Shown here in pieces: positions 1 to 63,869 of a stretch of 64,000 nt of DNA. The translations under genes and the position numbers were made by a program. The DNA is from a virus. Position 1 is the first letter of the stretch, and each line of letters opens with the position of its first letter. The DNA lies in the IMG/VR virus record IMGVR_UViG_3300035670_000099, positions 29,612 through 93,611 of that record; one strand, 5' to 3'. Under the pieces are notes generated by a model. That model did not search any database. It had not been told where the DNA came from and was given only the letters and a program-made list of their open reading frames with translations.

Positions 1-1509
1 TATTATGCCATTTATTGTCTGAGTTGTTAAATTAGTTATTGTTTGATTGCTAGTTTGATTGGTAGCTAAAGTTACTGGAGTCCATGCGGATACATTGCTA
101 CTACTAACAGTTAAACCACTATTAGATCTATAACTTCTAGTTACTTCAGTTGTTAAAGTAGTTGGTGCTGCTCCTAATGGAATAGTTAAACTTTTCTTAG
201 CCACAATCCAGTAATATGCTTTTTGCCCTGATACTGTTCCGTTTGAAAAGTTGTATTGTACTCCATTTAATAATTCATTGGTGTTTCTTAATGCTTGCTC
301 CCATGTCTTCCACCTATTGTTGTAAGTATCTATTTCAGCTGCGTGCTGAGTTCTCATTTGCTGTAAATCAATGTTACCACTTAAATAACTGTCGATTATT
401 GCATTCCAATTAGAAATCGTGTCTTGTGTGTTGGTTTCGTTAAGATCAGCCTCTGGGCGACGGTTTTCGTGAGTTAATATTGCTGGGACATCATTAAAAA
501 TGCTTGAAACATTTATTGATTTACTAAGATTGTTTGCAAATCCAGCTGCTATTGATATTAAAATATTGTCTAGTGATAACGGTGTTAATGGGCAATTCCG
601 CCAAGCAAATTCCATACTACTCACATTCCGAGTATTAAGTGCAGGGAATGATGTTAATGAGGTGTTGTCCCAAGTCGCATACATAGTATATACATTTTGA
701 GTATTAATCGATGGGAATGATATTAATGAGCCGCAATATTGCCAAGCAGTTTGCATTCTACCCACATTTTGAGTATTAAGCAATGGGAATGATGTTAATG
801 AGGTGCAACCATACCAAGCAAGTAGCATATCAGTCACATTCTGAGTATTAAGCAATGGGAATGATGTTAATGAGCTGCAACCATACCAAGCCGCATACAT
901 ACTAGTCACATTCTGAGTATTAAGCAATGGGAATGAGCTAACACGACAAGCAAAAAAACTGTTATTAGATTTAGTTACCCAAAAATTGTCAAGTGTAATC
1001 GCATTACTGTATTTAAGATTTTGGGATTTGCTTCCAAAATAATTTTCTATAACAGATCTATGATTTGGGTTAGATGTAATAACAATTCCTATAACTTTTA
1101 GAAAAGCATTTGAAGTGCCTGGTTGAAAATTTGCTTTAGTCCAAACATTTAAAATAGTATTAGCACCAACACTAATAGCAAAATCAAGCACACCATGATC
1201 TGCATCAGCAATATAAACAGTTCCATTAAAAGCATTTGTCCCAAAATTTATTAAGAAATTTCTAATAGGACTCATGTTTATAGTTCTTAATCCAGTGCCA
1301 GTAGCAGGATTATAAATTGGCTGTTCACTACCAACAGTTTGTGTAGCTGGTACATTATTAACACTCCTATCCCCCCAGCTGGTTATATTATTAGTGCCAG
1401 AAGCTAATGTAATTGTAGAAGTAGCTGTAGCATCATAAAATCTTAATACTTCAGGGAGTATTGATGATATATCAGCTGTTGCGTTTGTTTTAATTGCGAT
1501 TTTGCCCAT
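1..1509 (-). CDS. Partial (runs off window start) putative tail/receptor-binding protein with 24-aa BspA/DUF285-like leucine-rich repeats
   Basis: Absent from the ORF track because no stop falls in the window. Hand translation from ATG 1509 (RBS GGAG) gives MGKIAIKT... with no stop seen down to base 1. Contains repeats such as SLTSFPLLNTQNVTxMxxAWYGC. Lies at the end of the minus-strand structural cluster. Confidence 0.8.
   Translation of the reverse strand, partial: MGKIAIKTNATADISSILPEVLRFYDATATSTITLASGTNNITSWGDRSVNNVPATQTVGSEQPIYNPATGTGLRTINMSPIRNFLINFGTNAFNGTVYIADADHGVLDFAISVGANTILNVWTKANFQPGTSNAFLKVIGIVITSNPNHRSVIENYFGSKSQNLKYSNAITLDNFWVTKSNNSFFACRVSSFPLLNTQNVTSMYAAWYGCSSLTSFPLLNTQNVTDMLLAWYGCTSLTSFPLLNTQNVGRMQTAWQYCGSLISFPSINTQNVYTMYATWDNTSLTSFPALNTRNVSSMEFAWRNCPLTPLSLDNILISIAAGFANNLSKSINVSSIFNDVPAILTHENRRPEADLNETNTQDTISNWNAIIDSYLSGNIDLQQMRTQHAAEIDTYNNRWKTWEQALRNTNELLNGVQYNFSNGTVSGQKAYYWIVAKKSLTIPLGAAPTTLTTEVTRSYRSNSGLTVSSSNVSAWTPVTLATNQTSNQTITNLTTQTINGII
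601..935 (-). repeat. About 5 tandem ~72-bp coding repeats (24-aa LRR units)
   Basis: CACATT(C/T)TGAGTATTAAGCAATGGGAATGA recurs at ~72-bp spacing, in frame with the 1-1509 CDS. Confidence 0.9.
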
Positions 1510-3919: not shown

Positions 3920-6244
3920 TTAATATCCTCCCCCAACGCCTTCGAACATGTAAGCAAAGGCAGCAGCCATATTTATGTAACTGCCTCCTGAAGGATTCCA
4001 AGTTACAATAACTGTCTCATCTATATTATTGGTATATGTCAATGTATCTGTTATTGCTTCGGTGGTTGCTGAAGGAAATTCATAATTAAACACTGCTGTT
4101 TGGTTGTTGCCGGCACCAATATCATTATCAACGCTTCCTTTTAACACTGTAACAGTCTGATTATTGGAGGATTTATCTACAACAATCGAAGGTGTTGCAT
4201 TGCTAAGGGGAAGAGTTACAGCATTAACTCTTACAGTATCTCCTATAGATATATTATTAAAAACTGCGCTATTTGCGGATAAACTAAAGTAACTAACTCC
4301 TGTTATGCCAGCATTATAAGCATTATCTGTTGTTATGTTTAAACCAGAAATAGATGATTGGTTTTTGATTGGCTTTAGATTGAATGTAATATCTAAATTG
4401 CTATTAGCAATGTTCCAAGCGTATGAAGTATTGCCTACCCTTCTTAGTTCATGATTAGTGCTAGTATCTTTCCATCCAGACAAAGTCACACCATTGACTA
4501 TTTGATCATATCTAGGCTGCTTTTTAAAACAAATCAAGACATTTTCCGTAAAAAACCACACCCAACTTGCTACTGATGTTTGCTCTATTCCTTTTAATGT
4601 TATTTTGCATTGTGTGCCACTGTTAATAAAGCTTAATTCGCCATTAACTAATTGCCTTCCAGCATAATTTGGATTATTTCCAAGCCCCAAAGGATTGGCT
4701 CCACCATTAAAAATAAATCCAAAATTAAGCATTCCAATAAATGTTGTGTAGTTAGGAGTTGCAGTATTATTAAAGCCTAGTTTTGTGTGATTCCAGCCAT
4801 ATAATTTTATTGCAGAAACTTGTGCTGTTGCTAATTCAGCATATTCTGGGACTAAAATATTTTCACCACCACTAGGATAAGTATAATACAATCCATGAGT
4901 TATATTTATATTGCTTGTTCTATTTGGATTAAACAATTCTCTAAATCCAGAAAAAGTAATACCAGTTGTGCCTAATCCAGTGAATTTACTAAAATAAAGA
5001 TATCTAAGTTTTCGCATTGCACTGATTTTAAATGCATAAAGACTAAGAGATAAATCAGAATATAATTCCTCAAGATTTACACATTTATGCAAATTATTTA
5101 CTATCGAATTAACATCAAAAGAACCTTCTATAATCAAAGATTTTAGATTCTGTAAAGGCAATGGTGCTATACCAATTCCTGGTGCAAATCTAGACTGAGT
5201 AGGACTAGCTGAGCTTCTTAATTGTAATTCTTCTAAATTGTTTAAGTTTGCTCTTAATGTTGTATTATCTGTTCTAAATCTAGTCAAACTAGTTTCTGTG
5301 CCTGTCATTTGACAGATAATTTTTAATCCTTTTATATCAGAAAAATTATTAAATTTTAGTTTAACAACAACAGGGATTTGAGCATTTATTGTCTTGTTAT
5401 TGGGTGTTGTTTTGTAATTATTATCGGATTGAGTAATAGCGGTAGTTGATTCATCCGGAAACTCCATTGTAAATGAGGCATTTTGTTGCAACTTAACATC
5501 AAGTCTTGTTAATGTGCTTGCTGCTATTGGGTTAGTTGTCTCATGAGGAGTATTGTAATAATTCTGAGAACTATTTGTTAATCCGTTACACAAAATCCAA
5601 ATTTCTTCATTATCCCAATCCGGAAGACTTGCATCAAATCCGCTACCATTTTCTAAGCCAACATTTACGATTGAATTTCCTGCATATCCGCATGCGCCTA
5701 CTACATATAAATGCGCATCTGTATAAGTTATTGTTCTTGTACTTAATTCAGTATCTCCTGTTTTGTAGGTTACTTGATTCCCTTCTATTGTGATAGACAA
5801 ATTATCTATTCCGTAAGTGCCAGACAATTGGCTTATAGTGTTTTCATGTACAATCCATAACGAGCCGTCGTCTGCCATGGGATTGCGGATAAAGCCATAG
5901 GCAACAGATCTAGCAATTGTATTGATATGTGTTGCGTATAAGGGAGGTATTCCAGCTGTAAATCCACAAATAGCACTTAATGGATTGCTGCTGTTGTTGC
6001 TAAAGCCAAACTCTAGTTTGCCGTTATACGGAGATTTAGTAAGACGTAAATTTAGCATCCTCCACTCAGCGGAACTGACAAAAGGATTATTATATCCACT
6101 TCTACTGCTATTTCCGTAAAACAATGTCCATATACTGCCGTCTTGTCCATAAACAGAATTATTCTGATCAGGAATTTGTGTGTGTCTATAAACAAATTGT
6201 CCGTTAACGTTTCCGCTAGTTCTAGTTAAGCTATTTGTAGCCAT
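3920..6244 (-). CDS. Putative tail fibre/receptor-binding protein, paralog B (774 aa)
   Basis: Same N-terminus (MATNSLTR) and long identical blocks shared with 1526-3823. Confidence 0.6.
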   Translation of the reverse strand: MATNSLTRTSGNVNGQFVYRHTQIPDQNNSVYGQDGSIWTLFYGNSSRSGYNNPFVSSAEWRMLNLRLTKSPYNGKLEFGFSNNSSNPLSAICGFTAGIPPLYATHINTIARSVAYGFIRNPMADDGSLWIVHENTISQLSGTYGIDNLSITIEGNQVTYKTGDTELSTRTITYTDAHLYVVGACGYAGNSIVNVGLENGSGFDASLPDWDNEEIWILCNGLTNSSQNYYNTPHETTNPIAASTLTRLDVKLQQNASFTMEFPDESTTAITQSDNNYKTTPNNKTINAQIPVVVKLKFNNFSDIKGLKIICQMTGTETSLTRFRTDNTTLRANLNNLEELQLRSSASPTQSRFAPGIGIAPLPLQNLKSLIIEGSFDVNSIVNNLHKCVNLEELYSDLSLSLYAFKISAMRKLRYLYFSKFTGLGTTGITFSGFRELFNPNRTSNINITHGLYYTYPSGGENILVPEYAELATAQVSAIKLYGWNHTKLGFNNTATPNYTTFIGMLNFGFIFNGGANPLGLGNNPNYAGRQLVNGELSFINSGTQCKITLKGIEQTSVASWVWFFTENVLICFKKQPRYDQIVNGVTLSGWKDTSTNHELRRVGNTSYAWNIANSNLDITFNLKPIKNQSSISGLNITTDNAYNAGITGVSYFSLSANSAVFNNISIGDTVRVNAVTLPLSNATPSIVVDKSSNNQTVTVLKGSVDNDIGAGNNQTAVFNYEFPSATTEAITDTLTYTNNIDETVIVTWNPSGGSYINMAAAFAYMFEGVGGGY

Positions 6245-8895
6245 TAATTTTGCCCTGTAATTACTGAAAGTGTTCCGCTGCCTGTGTTAACAATATGCAA
6301 TGGATTTGTTGCGGTAGGAGTTGCTATATTAAAATTTGATGTTCCTACGTTTGCTTGCCAGCTAATTTGTTCAGTTGTTTTACTAAGCAATTCTCCCAAA
6401 TGCTTTAAGAAAAATAATATTAAATCCTGTGACTCTATTTGATTAGTAAAACTATCATAACTTGTTGCAAAAAATTCTCTATATTCTTGGAATGCGTGAG
6501 TCAAATCTATTTGTTTAGCACCACCTCCTATAACTATATTTGATACTATATCTCCTACTGGCTGAAAACCGTCTTTGCTTACTAGAGCAGTTATACCAGC
6601 AGCTAATAGATTGCCTTTTAGGAATGAATTAGCTGATGTTAAATCAATAAAAGTTCCACCTGAATTTAATTCTAGGACAACTTGAGTAGAATTATATAAT
6701 AACGAATTTAAGTTTGGATCTACAACTATACCTATACTAGGAGCATTAGTTAATATTGTGTTTACAGTACTTGCGTAATTGCGTTTACTTATTACATTTG
6801 AGTTAGTTGTGCTTGCTACATACACAATATCTACACTGTCTACAGCGACAATAATGTCTGGATTTGACAGACTATGGCTAAAACTAAACTCACTACTATT
6901 TGTGTATTGGCTACCACTAAATCTTGTTAGACAAGAAACACTCCCAGATGACAAGGAAATAAATAGTTTAAGTTGGCTGTATGCTATTCCTAGAACAGAA
7001 GAAGCATTGTTAAAAGACGACTCTAAATCAGGAGCTGTTGTAGTCGTAGCAGAATAGATATTAACATTATTTTGCAGTGCAACAAAAAATCTATTATCAG
7101 CAGCTAATACTTGGGCAGTCAGAGGAACAGTCAATCCAGTAACACTATAAATTAGTGATGGAGATAAAAATCCTCTTGGGTTAATTGTGTCATCCGTGAT
7201 GTTCCATACGGTAAAACCTGAGGAATTAGTAATTATTAACCTATCTTGCAGAACACTGTTGACAGTGACAGAAGAAAAAGCCAAATCTATTGCATTAGAA
7301 CTGTTGGTGAGAAAGCTATCAATAATATCTCCAGTGCTTCCATTGATTGCTAAAATAGCATTACTTATGGTAGTTGCTACGTACAAAATATCGTATTTTT
7401 GTACATATAATATATTCCTAGCGTTGCAATCTACTGTTTTAATTAAAGTTTGTAATGTAGTTGAGATAAATGATATTTTGCCTGATAGTGAATCAACAAC
7501 ATAAAGTAAATTCTGACTATCATATTGTTCTTGTACAGTAGGTTCTAATTTTATAGTAGATGAATTAGATTCATTAAGTCTATATCTTCTAATTGTTAAT
7601 TCTGTAGGAACATTAGCTGTAGCTGTTAGATATTTTGGAAAATGTCTAGTGTAGTTTCTTTTTTCATTTAAAGAATCTTTAGTTAATAATCCAAATATAA
7701 AAGACTCCTTGAAAGGAATTAATTCTTTAAATTGTCCAGCAGCAGAAAACATTTTTATTACTGCTGTACTTGCCCCTACTCTAGTGACTGACGTTCCGTA
7801 TTTACTTAACTTACTAACACTTGAAAAACTAACACCTGAAAATGATGGGGTTGTAGAGTGAAAAAAAGTTAAAGGAAGTGCTGACGCGTTCCTTTCTGGA
7901 AATTGATTCAATGTGTCTGAAATGCCTATTTTATGGAACATTGTCCATGTATGTCTTCCCGCTCGTTTATCAGGAATATAAGCATAAAACTTAACAGCAC
8001 TGCCATCATAACTTCCTATTTCAATGGCAAACATTGTTACATAGGAAAAATCTATTACATGTCCAGATACTCCGCTACCATCTAATTTATCAACAAATTC
8101 ATTTCTATAAAAAACTTGATCTATAGTCTTATTGGGAGTTGTAATTCTAGAATCTGTATATCTTCTAACAACTTTAAAATTGTCTCCAGCGCCAGATCCG
8201 CTAATCTCGATAAACCAACCAGTTTCAGATGAATAAATTCCACATCTTGATAAACAGCTTTCGTTTTTATGCTCTCTTTTAAGTCCAAAAGAAACAAAAA
8301 CATTGGCTGCTACATCACAGTCAAATACTTGCTTGGTGGCACAAGTAACATACCTTCTGGCGGTGCTGCCAATGTCATACTTAGAATCTATAATTAAATC
8401 AATTGCAGAATTATCGTAATCTTCATAAGAAATAATCCCTTCATATTCGTCTTGTATTGACTGACTTCCTATACTCCAAACGCCTTTGTAATAAGGAAAT
8501 AAATCATTACTGATAGCATTACCAGAAGTGGATGGCAATTCATTTTTCTTAATATCATTTCCGTCTACACTTCCATATTGTATTACCCAATCGTTAGGAT
8601 CTATTCCATAAGAATGCGTGTCAGCAAATACTATTTGACGTTTATCTTCAATTGGATAACCAAAAATCGTTTCTTCAATTGGCTCTGGAAGTGGGATCGC
8701 TCTGTTAATTGTTACAAATGTGCCTTCTGTACTCAATACAGCAGGATAATGTTTTGGAGTGCTTGAAGGCTTAAGTCCTAAATCTTCACGAGACTCTCCT
8801 AGATCTTCGGGTAAATGTACAAGTTTTGGCCTTTTAAGTCCTGGATCTTCAAGAGACTCTCCTAAATCTTCGGGTAAATATACAAATTCTGGCAT
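6244..8895 (-). CDS. Virion structural protein (883 aa) with beta-propeller-like insert
   Basis: Motif DKLDGSGVSG..DFS..MF.IE recalls cyanophage virion proteins; YVTN-like blades (ILYVATTISNAILAINGSTG); coupled TAATG overlaps. Confidence 0.55.
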   Translation of the reverse strand: MPEFVYLPEDLGESLEDPGLKRPKLVHLPEDLGESREDLGLKPSSTPKHYPAVLSTEGTFVTINRAIPLPEPIEETIFGYPIEDKRQIVFADTHSYGIDPNDWVIQYGSVDGNDIKKNELPSTSGNAISNDLFPYYKGVWSIGSQSIQDEYEGIISYEDYDNSAIDLIIDSKYDIGSTARRYVTCATKQVFDCDVAANVFVSFGLKREHKNESCLSRCGIYSSETGWFIEISGSGAGDNFKVVRRYTDSRITTPNKTIDQVFYRNEFVDKLDGSGVSGHVIDFSYVTMFAIEIGSYDGSAVKFYAYIPDKRAGRHTWTMFHKIGISDTLNQFPERNASALPLTFFHSTTPSFSGVSFSSVSKLSKYGTSVTRVGASTAVIKMFSAAGQFKELIPFKESFIFGLLTKDSLNEKRNYTRHFPKYLTATANVPTELTIRRYRLNESNSSTIKLEPTVQEQYDSQNLLYVVDSLSGKISFISTTLQTLIKTVDCNARNILYVQKYDILYVATTISNAILAINGSTGDIIDSFLTNSSNAIDLAFSSVTVNSVLQDRLIITNSSGFTVWNITDDTINPRGFLSPSLIYSVTGLTVPLTAQVLAADNRFFVALQNNVNIYSATTTTAPDLESSFNNASSVLGIAYSQLKLFISLSSGSVSCLTRFSGSQYTNSSEFSFSHSLSNPDIIVAVDSVDIVYVASTTNSNVISKRNYASTVNTILTNAPSIGIVVDPNLNSLLYNSTQVVLELNSGGTFIDLTSANSFLKGNLLAAGITALVSKDGFQPVGDIVSNIVIGGGAKQIDLTHAFQEYREFFATSYDSFTNQIESQDLILFFLKHLGELLSKTTEQISWQANVGTSNFNIATPTATNPLHIVNTGSGTLSVITGQN
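8771..8885 (-). repeat. 2 x 63-bp coding duplication (LPEDLGESxEDxGLK) at the N-terminus of the 883-aa protein
   Basis: TTAAGTCCT...GAGACTCTCCTA.ATCTTCGGGTAAAT at 8771 and 8834. Confidence 0.9.
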
Positions 8896-58629: not shown

Positions 58630-60033
58630 TTAAAATTGAAAATAAGGTTTTTTTTCTAATAAACTATTTTGAGCTTTAGCTAGCTCTATACCAAGATAAG
58701 CAGCATGACTTGCCAACATAGAAGGATTATTGACTAAAATCTTGCTGCAAATTAAATTGCAAGATATGCCAGAGTATTTAGCTATTTCTTCTCCATCCTT
58801 AGTCACGTGAGTTACTAAAATCCTATTGCTATCAACTTCGATAACAAAATTTCCAACAGGATCGTCAAAAACTTTTTGATTAGCAATCCGCTGGTAATAA
58901 GAACAAATAACATCATCAGCAGCAACCCAAGAGTTTTCATATATATGTGCGCTTTCACTAATAATCGTTAAAGAGCCTATTTTAATGTCTGGGTAAAAAT
59001 TTTTAATTTGACTAAAAATATAATACTGCAATCGCCTTAGCCCCATGGCATTAGATACCCAAGCAGAAAACATGTCATTACTTCTAAAAAGTGCTGTTAA
59101 GTAAAATTGATTATTATATATTTTTATCCAAATATGATTTAAGCATGGTGGAGATTGAGAAAAAATATCAGTATTAGCATCCCAAAGATTAATTACTAAT
59201 CTGTTAGAGATTTGACTTGTTTTAAGCATGTTAATAACATTTTCAATCTGATTAACACCAAAATACTCATTAATCCTAGTTCCATAGCTGTTGCTGTTAT
59301 CAGCAATGCATAATATTTGCTGCACATATTTGTTTATAAACTCTCTGCTTGTCGGTAAATAATTTGGTTCTGGGAATATTAATTCTTCTGGTTCTTCTGT
59401 AATAATAACAGTAAAATTTAATAATTCTTGCCACAAAATATTGCTTGAACTAATGTCAATTTTACCAAGACTTCTAATTCTATGCAATATTTTTACCCAA
59501 GCTTCATGAATAAATTTTGATTGTATTCTATGTCCATTTAATTCTCCGGAAACAGTCGAGACAATTGGTTTGTTTTCTGGAAAAATCATTGGAGAAGCCC
59601 ATAAATTACAACTTTTACCGCTAAATGATTTAACAGCTTTTACTAAAGAAAAAATATCTTCAAATTTGTATGATTGAACAGAAAATCGTAAGCAATCAAG
59701 AGCATTTTTTGGTATTTCAATATCAATATAAGCTGCATGTTTAGATTCTACTATCCAAGCATTTCTGCCGCCACTAGTCTTTCCTAGCCTTACTCCATTA
59801 GCAAAAAAATCCAATAAGCAATCTATAGAGCCTGAATTTAAATCATATTTACTAGCTTTTAACAAAAATAAATATCTAATATTTGTATTAGCTAATAAAT
59901 TACGTATTAACAAATTAATTCCAGGAGTGCATGAATATAATTCTTTTAATACAAAATAATTATTTGCTTCTAAATGTTTAGAGACATTAGAAGCAATTGT
60001 CCATCCTGTTGCTATAGCAATATGATTACTCAT
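58630..60033 (-). CDS. thyA: Thymidylate synthase fusion (MtrA-like N-domain, ThyA core, DUF4346-like C-domain)
   Basis: SYGTRI, PPCL, FRSND, SAHIYE; C-term DPVGNFVI...HAAYLGIELAKA; N-term GINLLIRNLLAN.NIRYL; ATG 60033 preferred. Confidence 0.85.
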   Translation of the reverse strand: MSNHIAIATGWTIASNVSKHLEANNYFVLKELYSCTPGINLLIRNLLANTNIRYLFLLKASKYDLNSGSIDCLLDFFANGVRLGKTSGGRNAWIVESKHAAYIDIEIPKNALDCLRFSVQSYKFEDIFSLVKAVKSFSGKSCNLWASPMIFPENKPIVSTVSGELNGHRIQSKFIHEAWVKILHRIRSLGKIDISSSNILWQELLNFTVIITEEPEELIFPEPNYLPTSREFINKYVQQILCIADNSNSYGTRINEYFGVNQIENVINMLKTSQISNRLVINLWDANTDIFSQSPPCLNHIWIKIYNNQFYLTALFRSNDMFSAWVSNAMGLRRLQYYIFSQIKNFYPDIKIGSLTIISESAHIYENSWVAADDVICSYYQRIANQKVFDDPVGNFVIEVDSNRILVTHVTKDGEEIAKYSGISCNLICSKILVNNPSMLASHAAYLGIELAKAQNSLLEKKPYFQF

Positions 60034-60649
60034 AAGAAACATTATGCAATGGCATGTAGCATCGTGCTTGATTATCTGGTAAATAAGATGGGCATCTCCA
60101 ACCCCAATCCTTGACTTTATAATCACACAAAAATATTCGGCTGTCTTTTTGCAAATAAATACAAGGAACAGGACGACTAAGTTTGTCATTTTTCCATAAA
60201 TGATAATCGTCGATTAGCTCTTCTACTAACCAGCTTTTAATACCAGAATAAAACATAGTTTTATATTTTCCTAAAAAATGAATATATTCTAGCAATTCTT
60301 CTAATTTTTGCAAATCTGCTCGACAATACCAAGTAATTTGAGATGTTACTCTCCATGGTTTTATAGTACCATTGCCAAGATTATGATTTTTCTGTAAAAA
60401 ATAATACGGACTACTAGTTTTATAATACCAACTTGTCTTATCATTAGATAAATACCCAATTTCTAATGGAATATTCTCTTTTATGATTATTAGCCCAGCT
60501 TTAATTTGTTCCATATCAGGGTTTTGTTTAAGCATTTTAGCATTAAACAAAATTTGATGAGACAAAATTGCGTCAAAGCTAGGATTCCAATCATTACTTA
60601 ATGCGACAGGATTGGATAAAAAGGCAACTATTTTAATGTTAGAAATCAT
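60026..60649 (-). CDS. Orphan type IV CRISPR Csf3 (Cas5-group RAMP)-like protein
   Basis: KIVAFLSNPV...PSFDAIL...PL...WYYKTSSP...ITWYCRAD...LL..IHFLGK...W.VEE...L.RPVP...GWRCPSY..N...C.MP follows the Csf3 pattern as recalled. Confidence 0.65.
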   Translation of the reverse strand: MISNIKIVAFLSNPVALSNDWNPSFDAILSHQILFNAKMLKQNPDMEQIKAGLIIIKENIPLEIGYLSNDKTSWYYKTSSPYYFLQKNHNLGNGTIKPWRVTSQITWYCRADLQKLEELLEYIHFLGKYKTMFYSGIKSWLVEELIDDYHLWKNDKLSRPVPCIYLQKDSRIFLCDYKVKDWGWRCPSYLPDNQARCYMPLHNVSYE

Positions 60650-60657
60650 GATTAAGT

Positions 60658-61335
60658 ATGAATTACCATAATATTTTGAATCTGTGTCAATACTGCGCTA
60701 AAGTCTATGTGACCGAATCTATCATAGAGCATTCAACTGATACTGAAGTTTTAATAGATAAACAGCCTGACAAAATTATTATAGCATTTTGCGGAAGTGA
60801 ATCTATTGTAGATTGGAAGCAAAATATTGATTTTATATTAAGACCATTTCCTCAAGATAGAAAATGTAAAGTGCATTCTGGTTTTCTAGAATGCTTTTTA
60901 TCTGTTAAAAACAAAATCAATAAGATTTTAGAATTAATTCAAAATGAAAAACTTCCAGTTTTCTTTACAGGACACAGCTTAGGAGGTGCTATAGCTACTT
61001 TAGCGGCTGTTGATGCAAAAATGTCTTATCAAAATCTTAATATTACTTGTGTTACTTTTGGATCTCCAAAACCAGGTGACAAAAATTTTTCTCTGCTTTA
61101 TTCTAATCTAGGAATTTCAACATATAGAGTAATTAATTCTAATGATATTGTCCCATCACTGCCAAGATGGTGGCAAGGAAATTATTATCACGTCTGCCCA
61201 GCCTATCAAATTGGATTTGCAAATATTTTCTCCGCTATTAAATTAACAAATAAAATCAAAAACCACTATGTAAGTAAATACATAGAGGTTTTAGAAAAAC
61301 AATTATCTATTAACCATTTTGATTTTACGCGTTAA
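60658..61335 (+). CDS. Class 3 lipase
   Basis: IIIAFCGS, VHSGF, TGHSLGGAIA, TFGSPKPG, DIVP.LP, terminal His (NHY). Confidence 0.92.
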   Translation: MNYHNILNLCQYCAKVYVTESIIEHSTDTEVLIDKQPDKIIIAFCGSESIVDWKQNIDFILRPFPQDRKCKVHSGFLECFLSVKNKINKILELIQNEKLPVFFTGHSLGGAIATLAAVDAKMSYQNLNITCVTFGSPKPGDKNFSLLYSNLGISTYRVINSNDIVPSLPRWWQGNYYHVCPAYQIGFANIFSAIKLTNKIKNHYVSKYIEVLEKQLSINHFDFTR

Positions 61336-61636: not shown

Positions 61637-61697
61637 AATATACAACATATTTTAAATATGTCAACCTATTGACAAAATCCAAAAGGTAGTTTATAGT
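61637..61697. promoter_or_regulatory. Back-to-back sigma70-type promoters
   Basis: Plus: CTA-TTGACA(61669)-17-TATAGT; minus: TTGACA(61664)-16-TATATT. Confidence 0.65.
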
Positions 61698-61726: not shown

Positions 61727-62326
61727 ATGAAAGTCCCGTATGTAAGGCTAGAAACAAAAACACTTGTGCTTAAAGACAGAGAAGTAGACATCACAAACAA
61801 GCTTTTGTTTAATAGAGCTTTGAACGAAGCCTTGAAGGAACAAAAAGCTGCAAAAAAGGAAAGTAGTAATTCTTTCCTTGTTGTAGGAAAAGAATTTAGT
61901 TATAGGATGCGGTTTCTTAAATCTGGAACTGCTGTAAATCCTAGATGGACTTCAGAGAAAAAAATAGAGAAAACTAATGTAAAATATTACCTCCCGGTAG
62001 GAGATCCATTAACAATATCAAGTTTACTTGATTTTTACGCAAGATATAAAGTTGAGCTAGAGGCGGCAAATCTTGAAATCAAAAAAAGAGGTAGGCCTAA
62101 ATTACCAGCTGAATTAAGAAAGCCAAGAAAAAAGTATCCTAAGCCTCCATCTTTGTCCTTAAAGAAAAGAGGAAGACCAAAGTCTGAAAAGACTTTAGCT
62201 AAAGAAAGATGGATTAAATGGCATGAAGATAGCGGTGTACCTATAGCTCCTCGAAAAAGAGGAAGGCCATTGAAAAAAACTTTGTGGTATACTTGCGAAT
62301 TGCCACCAAATTATGTAAAATTATAA
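61727..62326 (+). CDS. Basic DNA-binding protein with three AT-hooks
   Basis: KKRGRPK, KKRGRPK, RKRGRPL. Confidence 0.75.
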   Translation: MKVPYVRLETKTLVLKDREVDITNKLLFNRALNEALKEQKAAKKESSNSFLVVGKEFSYRMRFLKSGTAVNPRWTSEKKIEKTNVKYYLPVGDPLTISSLLDFYARYKVELEAANLEIKKRGRPKLPAELRKPRKKYPKPPSLSLKKRGRPKSEKTLAKERWIKWHEDSGVPIAPRKRGRPLKKTLWYTCELPPNYVKL

Positions 62327-62373: not shown

Positions 62374-62895
62374 ATGAAAGAACATTTAAAAGTAGAAAAC
62401 AAAGATCTATCGTCTCTAAAGCCTTACATTAATAATGCTAAATTGCATCCTGAAGAACAAATACTTAAAATAGCTAGGAGTATCAAAGAATTAGGCTTTC
62501 TAGATCCAGTAGCTGTAGATGAGAATAATGAAATATTAGAAGGACACGGCAGATTTTTGGCTGCAAAATTACTGGGATTAGAAACAATTCCTACTATAAC
62601 TATCACTAATTTATCTAAAGATGAAAAAATAGCGTATAGAATTGCGCACAATAAATTGACAATGGATACAGGCTGGGATCTTGAGCTATTGCAATTTGAT
62701 TTACAACAAATAGAGGATTTAGATATTTCATTATCAGGTTTTGATAAATTTGAATTTTCCTCTTTTTATGAAGATGAAGAGGATGAAAGTGAAGATCAAG
62801 ATGAAGATGAAGACTTGCCATTATCCAAAGAAATTTTAGATGATGATTTAAAGAAATATAAACACACATGTCCAGAGTGTGGATTTAAATGGTAA
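62374..62895 (+). CDS. ParB/Srx N-terminal domain protein with acidic linker and CPECG tail
   Basis: LKPYINNAKLH...SIKELGFLDPV.VD....ILEGHGR..AA...YRIAHNKL. Confidence 0.88.
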   Translation: MKEHLKVENKDLSSLKPYINNAKLHPEEQILKIARSIKELGFLDPVAVDENNEILEGHGRFLAAKLLGLETIPTITITNLSKDEKIAYRIAHNKLTMDTGWDLELLQFDLQQIEDLDISLSGFDKFEFSSFYEDEEDESEDQDEDEDLPLSKEILDDDLKKYKHTCPECGFKW

Positions 62896-63869
62896 AAGAT
62901 TTAACTGTTATTAGTACTTTTGCTGGTGGCGGAGGATCTAGTCTTGGCTATAATTTAGCTGAATACAAAGAATTGCTAGCTATTGAATGGGATTCTAACG
63001 CTGCCGAATGTTTAAAGGCTAATTTTCCTGATTTACCTGTATTCCAGCAAGATATAAAAAAAATTACATCTAAAAAAATATTAGATTTTACTGGATTAGC
63101 GCCAGGAGAATTAGATTTATTAGATGGCTCTCCGCCTTGTCAAGGATTTTCAACTACAGGCAAAAGAGATTATAAAGATCAAAGAAATAATCTTTTTATA
63201 GAGTTTGTTAGACTTCTTAAAGATTTACAGCCAAGATCTTTTTTAATGGAAAATGTGTCTGGAATGATTATAGGAGCTAATAAAAAGACATATTTATTAT
63301 GTGTAGATGAATTAAGACAGGCTGGATATGTAATAAAATCTGGGCTATATAATACCAAATACTTTGGTGTTCCTCAATCTAGAGAGAGATTAATTATTAT
63401 AGGCATTAGAAAAGATTTAGGCATAGCACCAACTTTAATTGAAAATAAAACAAAGCCTATTACAGTAAAAAATGCTTTTAAAGGATTAGATGATAATTCT
63501 GGAATAGAATTTCCAGATTGGCTTAAAAAAGCAACATTAGAAATGATTCCAGGTAATTTTGGAAAAGAACATGTAGAAAGAGCTTTTATAAAATATAGAG
63601 GAAATCCAAATGGTGCAAGATCTTTTAAATTATTAGCATGGGATAAACCATCTTGTACAGTCACAAAAACTTGGATTCTACCATCTGGTATAGCACATCC
63701 AGATAAACAAAGATATATTAATATTTCTGAAATAAAAAGATTGTGCAGTTTCCCAGATAATTACAAATTGCCTGGTAAATTTACAGATCAATTAGCAAGA
63801 ATGGGTAATTCCGTACCACCATTGTTTGCAAAGCATTTAGCAGAGCATATAAAAAATTTATTGTCATAA
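62889..63869 (+). CDS. C5 DNA cytosine methyltransferase
   Basis: STFAGGGG, GSPPCQGFS, ENV, PQSRER, GNSVPP. Confidence 0.95.
   Translation: MVKDLTVISTFAGGGGSSLGYNLAEYKELLAIEWDSNAAECLKANFPDLPVFQQDIKKITSKKILDFTGLAPGELDLLDGSPPCQGFSTTGKRDYKDQRNNLFIEFVRLLKDLQPRSFLMENVSGMIIGANKKTYLLCVDELRQAGYVIKSGLYNTKYFGVPQSRERLIIIGIRKDLGIAPTLIENKTKPITVKNAFKGLDDNSGIEFPDWLKKATLEMIPGNFGKEHVERAFIKYRGNPNGARSFKLLAWDKPSCTVTKTWILPSGIAHPDKQRYINISEIKRLCSFPDNYKLPGKFTDQLARMGNSVPPLFAKHLAEHIKNLLS

Follow-up and report, generated by a model that had tools for sequence, protein, structure and literature searches.

What can a single subunit of a type IV CRISPR-Cas complex do for a phage whose sequenced genome holds none of its partner genes? 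The question is posed by csf3L, a minus-strand gene in the 64,000-nucleotide stretch analysed here (the window), which forms the right 64 kb of the 93.6-kb IMG/VR record IMGVR_UViG_3300035670_000099 (G000; CheckV completeness about 90%). The record belongs to a siphovirus: its tail-tip genes are lambda-like, and it encodes an FtsK-like ATPase as well as a tape measure of 6235 amino acids (aa). A preliminary description of the window had taken csf3L for a shortened type IV Csf3/Cas5-like gene standing without its partners; profile searches, predicted fold and phylogeny support this view and place the orphan, carried here on a mobile element, in the line of type IV-B. Both the identity and the descent of the gene are well supported and can be held with high confidence. 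A role as a dominant-negative mimic of Cas5 is favoured below, tentatively.

The csf3L protein and its thumb region

Three features define the gene and its two altered regions:

60026..60649, minus strand: csf3L, predicted thumbless orphan homologue of Csf3 (type IV Cas5), 207 aa (open reading frame [ORF], PADLOC, AlphaFold [AF2], Foldseek and VIA-align)
60353..60394, minus strand: residues 86-99, QKNHNLGNGTIKPW, short loop in place of the thumb hairpin and its basic tip loop (alignment of 137 relatives, models)
60239..60274, minus strand: residues 126-137, LGKYKTMFYSGI, degenerate G-rich loop (alignment A3; coordinates checked by translation)

The typeIV_Cas5 model of PADLOC (PDLC01727) matches csf3L with an E value of 7.9e-25 in two stretches, model positions 4-70 and 120-218, skipping model positions 70-120, and a second PADLOC model (PDLC01498) matches it at 5e-12. 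The protein falls below the cut-off of the NCBIfam equivalog TIGR03116 (14.4 bits, E 0.022, against 140 bits required), and a Pfam scan of its 207 aa returned zero matches. An exhaustive profile search recovered 175 relatives, mostly of 215-240 aa; Csf3 models match all 40 of the 40 nearest, TIGR03116 itself doing so at E <= 0.001 in 37, and the profile of the csf3L family matches the solved Csf3 chains of the PDB with an E value of 6e-27.

The AF2 model, computed from 137 relatives, reaches a predicted local distance difference test score (pLDDT) of 93.6; the fold and the alignments were made with the cluster representative P0001, from which the window protein differs by N69S. Foldseek aligns the model to the Csf3 chains 7xg1_B, 8rc3_F and 8rc2_F with template modelling (TM) scores of 0.65-0.68 and a best E value of 6e-10, and VIA-align gives Z scores of 17.8, 17.7 and 16.5 for the three solved type IV-A Csf3 chains, the next-best match being a type I-A Cas5 at Z 7.9, so that these three proteins are its only strong structural matches. 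The fold is common to csf3L and the Csf3 of 7XG1_B (Pseudomonas aeruginosa IV-A1), 8RC3_F and 8RC2_F along the whole length, with 177-184 residues aligned and the motifs SSP, GK, RPxP, WGWRPP and CxMP present in both; unlike type IV-A Csf3, csf3L is encoded without csf1, csf2, cas6, dinG or an array. The ORF is intact, and 70 alignment columns are invariant within its close group (55-75% identity). Judged by profiles and by the modelled structure, csf3L is a true but derived Csf3/Cas5 homologue; the RAMP-like character first ascribed to it is borne out both by the PADLOC match and by the presence of a RAMP/Cas5 fold.

Two regions set csf3L apart from its canonical relatives, and both had been pointed out in the preliminary description as a short central region and a degenerate Gly-rich loop. 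The segment between the SSP and ITW motifs measures 28 aa in csf3L and about 58 aa in canonical relatives, where it includes RKRWD...WGKRKAK...KSYDLPL, so that some 30 aa are gone. At this position the csf3L model has a strand (82-85), a 14-residue loop (86-99) and a second strand (100-112), with pLDDT falling to 63, whereas the model of the canonical Csf3 from a sister phage (G002) forms a long hairpin of strands 74-87 and 115-124 with a 27-residue tip loop. Residues 105-127 of 8RC3_F align to the csf3L segment, and the position is that of the type IV-A Cas5 thumb. In the G-rich loop, F133 and S135 replace glycines found in at least 90% of 137 Csf3 relatives (consensus GKKRxxGxG). The thumb cut and both glycine replacements are common to every member of the clade to which csf3L belongs, termed here the thumbless clade. 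In type IV-A complexes, the thumb crosses the guide:target duplex and holds base pair -1 in its notch, while in type IV-A3 an arginine loop on the thumb recruits PAM-side (protospacer-adjacent motif) DNA and is needed for interference (PMC11519345).

Orphan status and descent from phage type IV-B cassettes

A type IV-B cassette consists of csf1, cas11, csf2, csf3 and a cysH-like gene, and only a derivative of csf3 is present in the 93.6-kb record. Models for Csf2 and Csf1 (TIGR03115, TIGR03114, PDLC01724, PDLC01725), a search with PF01507 (3'-phosphoadenosine 5'-phosphosulfate [PAPS] reductase/CysH) and tblastn with the five cassette proteins of G002, cas11 included, returned no match in the record, which at about 90% completeness leaves up to 10% of the genome unseen for partner genes. 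No CRISPR array was found in the record either, the spaced repeats detected being coding tandem repeats only. The absence of Csf2/Cas7, Csf1, cysH and an array, first noticed in the window, hence extends to the whole record, and the genome-wide search for csf1, csf2 and cysH yielded no sign of an ordinary split locus. A weak match to the DinG model in the record is a generic helicase. Among the coding tandem repeats is one of 72 nt (window 692-936, 3.4 copies, 84% matches), in an ORF running off the window start.

The sister phage G002 offers a direct comparison. Its genome (86.3 kb, 100% complete, with inverted terminal repeats) carries a pair consisting of csf3L and the adjoining thymidylate synthase (TS) gene, 71-72% identical to the pair in the window, and, about 1.5 kb downstream of the TS gene, a complete IV-B cassette encoding Csf2 (E 2e-39), Cas11, Csf1 (E 2e-23), a CysH-like protein (PF01507) and a canonical Csf3 (E 4e-42) that is 28% identical to csf3L. 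In G002 (L005:10131-14664) this 3.7-kb cassette, in the order csf3-cysH-csf1-cas11-csf2, lies between homologues of two genes that are 38 nt apart in the present phage; the corresponding site, at G000 8195-8452 and 8491-8799 (L010), falls outside the window. Because G002 holds csf3L together with a full cassette that has its own canonical csf3, and because no cassette was found in the present record (about 90% complete), an ordinary split IV-B locus with csf3L as its Cas5 was rejected as an explanation. Elsewhere, csf3L usually occurs without a IV-B cassette: a second, thumbless csf3 is missing from all 25 further IV-B contigs, of which five are at least 90% complete, and in the complete 101-kb genome of phage Cr-LKS4 csf3L is present and csf2 was not found. 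Phages with csf3L thus usually have no cassette, and those with a cassette have no csf3L.

A tree of 183 Csf3 sequences (IQ-TREE quick, with Shimodaira-Hasegawa-like approximate likelihood ratio test [SH-aLRT] support) groups the window csf3L in the thumbless clade, which has 14 rows, an SH-aLRT support of 99 and a long stem, and which comprises three parts: the close group of the window protein, a group around P0038 and the group of phages CrV-01T and Cr-LKS4. Intact, full-length csf3L ORFs are found in all three lineages, at 30-75% identity. The clade lies within a larger one of 84 rows (SH-aLRT 99), to which all type IV-B Csf3 sequences taken from IMG/VR belong; its placement beside Dolichospermum-type cassettes is weak (support 84). 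This nesting among viral IV-B proteins indicates that the thumbless form arose once, from a phage type IV-B Csf3. The phage cassettes that would have been its source (G002/L005 10491-14194; Fuxiviridae, PMC10541130) have no arrays and belong to the same freshwater viral pool. Canonical Csf3 relatives occur at 51 IMG/VR loci, nearly all with cas11-csf2-csf3-cysH-csf1, and 185,579 species genomes gave a single match, a 4.6-kb contig of a Dolichospermum metagenome-assembled genome (MAG) with the same IV-B operon. The stretch carrying csf3L turns up in the lake and freshwater metagenomes of many studies; the P0038 form was found by locus scans in metagenome contigs and not in viral contigs. In one viral IV-B operon (L032:1753-8605), three divergent csf3 paralogues of canonical length (starts 3387, 4819, 6546) lie between csf2 and cysH, each falling in a different Csf3 subclade of the tree.

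Two members of the clade were reported in 2025, when ORF58 of CrV-01T and ORF60 of Cr-LKS4 were described as structural homologues of Csf3; the authors tied ORF58 to a mini CRISPR array of CrV-01T and reported no other Cas protein in that phage (PMC12481020). The mini-array is confirmed here as five repeats of 36-39 nt, 39 kb from the clade member (L086:19190-19521; CrV-01T 89192-89521), and the first two of its repeat-spacer units match each other exactly (76 nt, 100%). Its repeat is absent from the present genome with 9 mismatches allowed. These proteins share with csf3L the thumbless clade, a solitary occurrence and a long-tailed cyanophage background in which both an FtsK-like gene and a giant tape measure occur, but they are 30% identical to it and do not adjoin a TS gene, and CrV-01T has the mini-array. 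What is new beyond that report is the loss of the thumb and the G-rich loop and the descent from phage IV-B cassettes.

Thymidylate synthase and the flanking genes

On either side of csf3L lie the following features:

58630..60033, minus strand: cyanobacterial-type TS, 467 aa (Pfam PF00303 and PF14251, TIGR03283)
60026..60033, minus strand: 8-nt overlap of the csf3L stop and the TS start, ATGAGTAA, consistent with translational coupling (ORF coordinates)
60658..61335, plus strand: divergent class-3 lipase (Pfam Lipase_3, E 6.5e-33)

The neighbour that had been labelled thyA is not a classical ThyA. It joins an MtrA-like N-terminus and an archaeal-type TS core (TIGR03283, E 1e-37) to a PterinBD-DUF4346 C-terminus, and over its full length it is 44-46% identical to proteins that carry a thymidylate synthase annotation in a wide range of cyanobacteria, Dolichospermum, Anabaena, Calothrix and Crocosphaera among them. 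The catalytic C297 (PPC) and the R317-S318-N319-D320 motif (RSND), invariant in 40 homologues, are present in the window protein. The type is found on at least 80 IMG/VR contigs at 36-72% identity, and is therefore a common cyanophage metabolic gene, if one that has drawn little notice; the similarity suggests that the window copy is an auxiliary metabolic gene acquired from cyanobacteria, which points to a cyanobacterial host.

The coordinates confirm the 8-nt overlap described earlier, the csf3L stop codon (TAA) occupying 60028-60026 and the TS start codon (ATG) 60033-60031. Gene callers also choose an ATG at 60042 for the TS, but its homologues begin MSN... or MNK.... The overlap is likewise 8 nt in G002 (L005), and 4 nt, of the ATGA type, in L006 and in the distant L064 group. 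On the other side, the lipase starts 8 nt from the start of csf3L, and the lipase-csf3L-TS block is kept together in L004, L005 and L006. A longer block, which adds a TPR gene and a gene for a 199-aa protein ahead of the lipase, occupies different genome positions in G000 and G002. The lipase itself stands beside a nucleotide-metabolism gene both here (TS) and in CrV-01T, where a lipase-dCTP deaminase pair is present twice, inverted, near the right end (L086:2569-3171 and L086:32756-33358).

The 199-aa protein (window 61727-62326) is basic, with repeated KRGRPK/RKRGRP, AT-hook-like motifs and zero family matches; its G002 homologue lies at 5060-5368. One of two ParB_N-like paralogues follows at window 62374-62895 (the other at L010:8839-9417), and a C5 cytosine DNA methylase (62889-63869) comes after it at the contig end. 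Two promoter-like sites stand back to back in the intergenic space that separates the TPR gene from the gene for the 199-aa protein (window 61637-61697), each matching 11 of 12 consensus positions: TTGACA-16-TATATT on the minus strand, facing the TPR gene and running antisense to the lipase and on to csf3L, and TTGACA-17-TATAGT on the plus strand. The count of such sites, 30 against 24.5 expected after shuffling, is not above the shuffled level, and no transcription unit is therefore claimed.

Possible functions of the thumbless protein

The reading favoured here, though only tentatively and as a proposal drawn by analogy, is that csf3L imitates Cas5 and acts as a dominant negative against the IV-B complexes that phages encode. 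Its Cas5 palm is retained, and with it probably the contacts to Cas7/Csf2 and to Csf1, but it has lost the regions with which type IV-A complexes grip the first guide:target base pair and draw in PAM-side DNA. It could then take the position of Csf3 in IV-B complexes made by phages that compete for, or reside in, a shared cyanobacterial host, and the resulting complexes would be left unable to engage their nucleic-acid partner. The overlap with the TS gene would in that case reflect co-expression in a nucleotide-metabolism unit, with no shared mechanism. Four considerations favour this proposal: the protein has retained its palm but not its target-engaging parts; csf3L is an orphan; potential IV-B targets circulate in the same phage pool; and there is a direct precedent in AcrIB3, a Cas5 homologue of a Listeria phage that forms its own clade, joins Cascade and blocks target DNA binding (10.1101/2023.06.24.545427). 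As with csf3L, AcrIB3 is a viral Cas5 homologue encoded outside a cas operon and set in a separate clade; unlike csf3L, it is of type I-B origin and of proven activity, whereas inhibition by csf3L is only proposed. By this analogy csf3L would be an anti-type-IV device in phage-phage conflict, as AcrIB3 is for type I-B. Orphan cas genes of viruses form an established class; the contig identifiers of L004, G002 and L006 do not appear in the table of 358 orphan viral cas genes compiled in the same study (Katz et al.). The host Cascade that the preliminary description had named as the victim of such a decoy is an unlikely target, given that IV-B cassettes are nearly confined to viruses (the 51 viral loci against the one Dolichospermum MAG contig).

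Several observations weigh against a mimic. In G002, csf3L stands only some 1.5 kb from an intact IV-B cassette, an awkward arrangement for a poison, which may be tolerable only if the poison is specific for foreign complexes, csf3L being 28% identical to the Csf3 of G002. No aca-type regulator or known acr gene adjoins csf3L in Pfam searches, its neighbours being the lipase, the TS, the TPR protein, the ParB_N-like protein and the C5 DNA methylase, none of them a helix-turn-helix (HTH) aca protein. The type IV-B interference that would have to be blocked is itself hypothetical. Furthermore, the csf3L-TS overlap is kept at 40% and 46% identity of the two proteins in a different phage backbone, which hints at a tie to the TS that a decoy does not explain, and the thumbless proteins are still mildly basic, with isoelectric points (pI) of 8.1-9.3, so that nucleic-acid binding may occur.

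Nucleic-acid binding is the core of the first alternative, which is possible but on balance unlikely: csf3L would be a stand-alone RNA-binding protein aimed at the host, with its palm binding the 5' handle of CRISPR RNAs (crRNAs) or some other RNA, and would either sequester crRNAs from type I or III systems of the cyanobacterial host or work with a phage mini-array, a role suggested for CrV-01T. Cas5 proteins cap the 5' handles of crRNAs, in keeping with such a role, and one Cas homologue, AcrVIA2, does act on crRNA. Members of the thumbless clade are mildly basic, although a comparison of charge and pI did not separate the functional models. The five-repeat mini-array of CrV-01T was linked to a clade member by its authors (PMC12481020), and neutralisation of crRNAs by IV-B modules has been suggested by Pinilla-Redondo et al. 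All three lineages, however, have lost the two glycines of the G-rich loop, and the present phage has neither an array nor a repeat of the CrV type.

A second alternative, that csf3L is a partner or regulator of the TS, the two genes forming a unit comparable to csf3-cysH in IV-B in which the RAMP protein would serve a nucleotide enzyme as adaptor or regulator, is harder to sustain and seems improbable. The overlap noted in the preliminary description is real and lends it some weight, since it recurs in a second lineage: the window group has 8 or 4 nt and the P0038 group (L064) again has ATGA, in a pair whose csf3L is 40% and whose TS is 46% identical to those of the window and which stands on a different backbone that also encodes two methylases, FGE-like proteins and a sliding clamp. 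Likewise, the lipase-csf3L-TS block has moved as a unit between G000 and G002, and in IV-B cassettes cysH follows directly after csf3, with an 8-nt overlap in L012. A functional tie is nevertheless at most possible, since a Csf3-like gene is missing beside the majority of viral TS genes of this type: 76 of 80 viral loci have no such gene within 3 kb, the only ones with it being 3 close relatives, and one further locus has no upstream sequence. Host cyanobacteria, moreover, use the same TS without csf3L, and the CrV-01T/Cr-LKS4 lineage has csf3L without such a TS. The same facts bear on a broader version, to which a still slightly lower probability is given, in which Csf3-family proteins are adaptors for nucleotide-handling enzymes and csf3L-TS is a stripped-down, enzyme-swapped csf3-cysH core; it can draw on the overlap conserved in two lineages and on the place of cysH directly after csf3, and is weakened by the scarcity of Csf3-like genes beside viral TS genes. 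A lead towards thymidine hypermodification was dropped, since the genes of L064 that PHROG calls kinases are FGE-sulfatase-like (formylglycine-generating enzyme family) by Pfam; two of these (L064:7246-7923 and L064:10158-10937) flank the sliding-clamp gene downstream of csf3L-TS.

About as improbable as that broader version is a third alternative, in which csf3L serves in trans as a functional variant of Cas5, an alternative cap subunit which, without poisoning them, would alter what IV-B complexes bind, be these encoded by its own phage (the case of G002) or by a co-resident element. G002 does keep both csf3L and the cassette, and the three csf3 paralogues of the L032 operon suggest that mixed Cas5 variants may be normal in cassettes; those paralogues retain canonical length, however, the 25 other IV-B contigs all have no csf3L, and G000 and Cr-LKS4 have csf3L without a cassette, while no other Cas protein is reported in CrV-01T (PMC12481020). 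The option, raised in the preliminary description, that csf3L is a decaying, functionless remnant of a lost IV-B cassette would account for the missing partner genes and the two lost hallmark motifs, but is very improbable in view of the intact full-length ORFs conserved at 30-75% identity in three lineages, the 70 invariant columns of the close group, the long and well-supported stem, the confident fold and the conserved translational coupling.

The function of type IV-B systems, and the roles of their Csf3 and CysH, are still open (PMC8175902, PMC7038947). The thumbless clade provides a natural separation-of-function variant of the IV-B Cas5, with the palm kept and the thumb and G-rich loop gone. 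To our knowledge, Csf3 is not resolved in the only solved IV-B complex. Natural controls are at hand in near-isogenic phages with and without a IV-B cassette (G002 and G000) and in cassette phages without the thumbless gene, and two cultured phages of Raphidiopsis raciborskii, CrV-01T and Cr-LKS4, carry a clade member. If the proposed decoy role is true, csf3L would be the first derivative of a Cas subunit to act against type IV, and phage IV-B cassettes would be shown to act in phage-phage conflict. If the adaptor reading holds, the purpose of IV-B would be to supply or control an activity that modifies nucleotides or nucleic acids, and guided interference would not be its task. Should csf3L work instead with RNA or with the TS, it would give a handle on the role of Csf3 in type IV-B systems.

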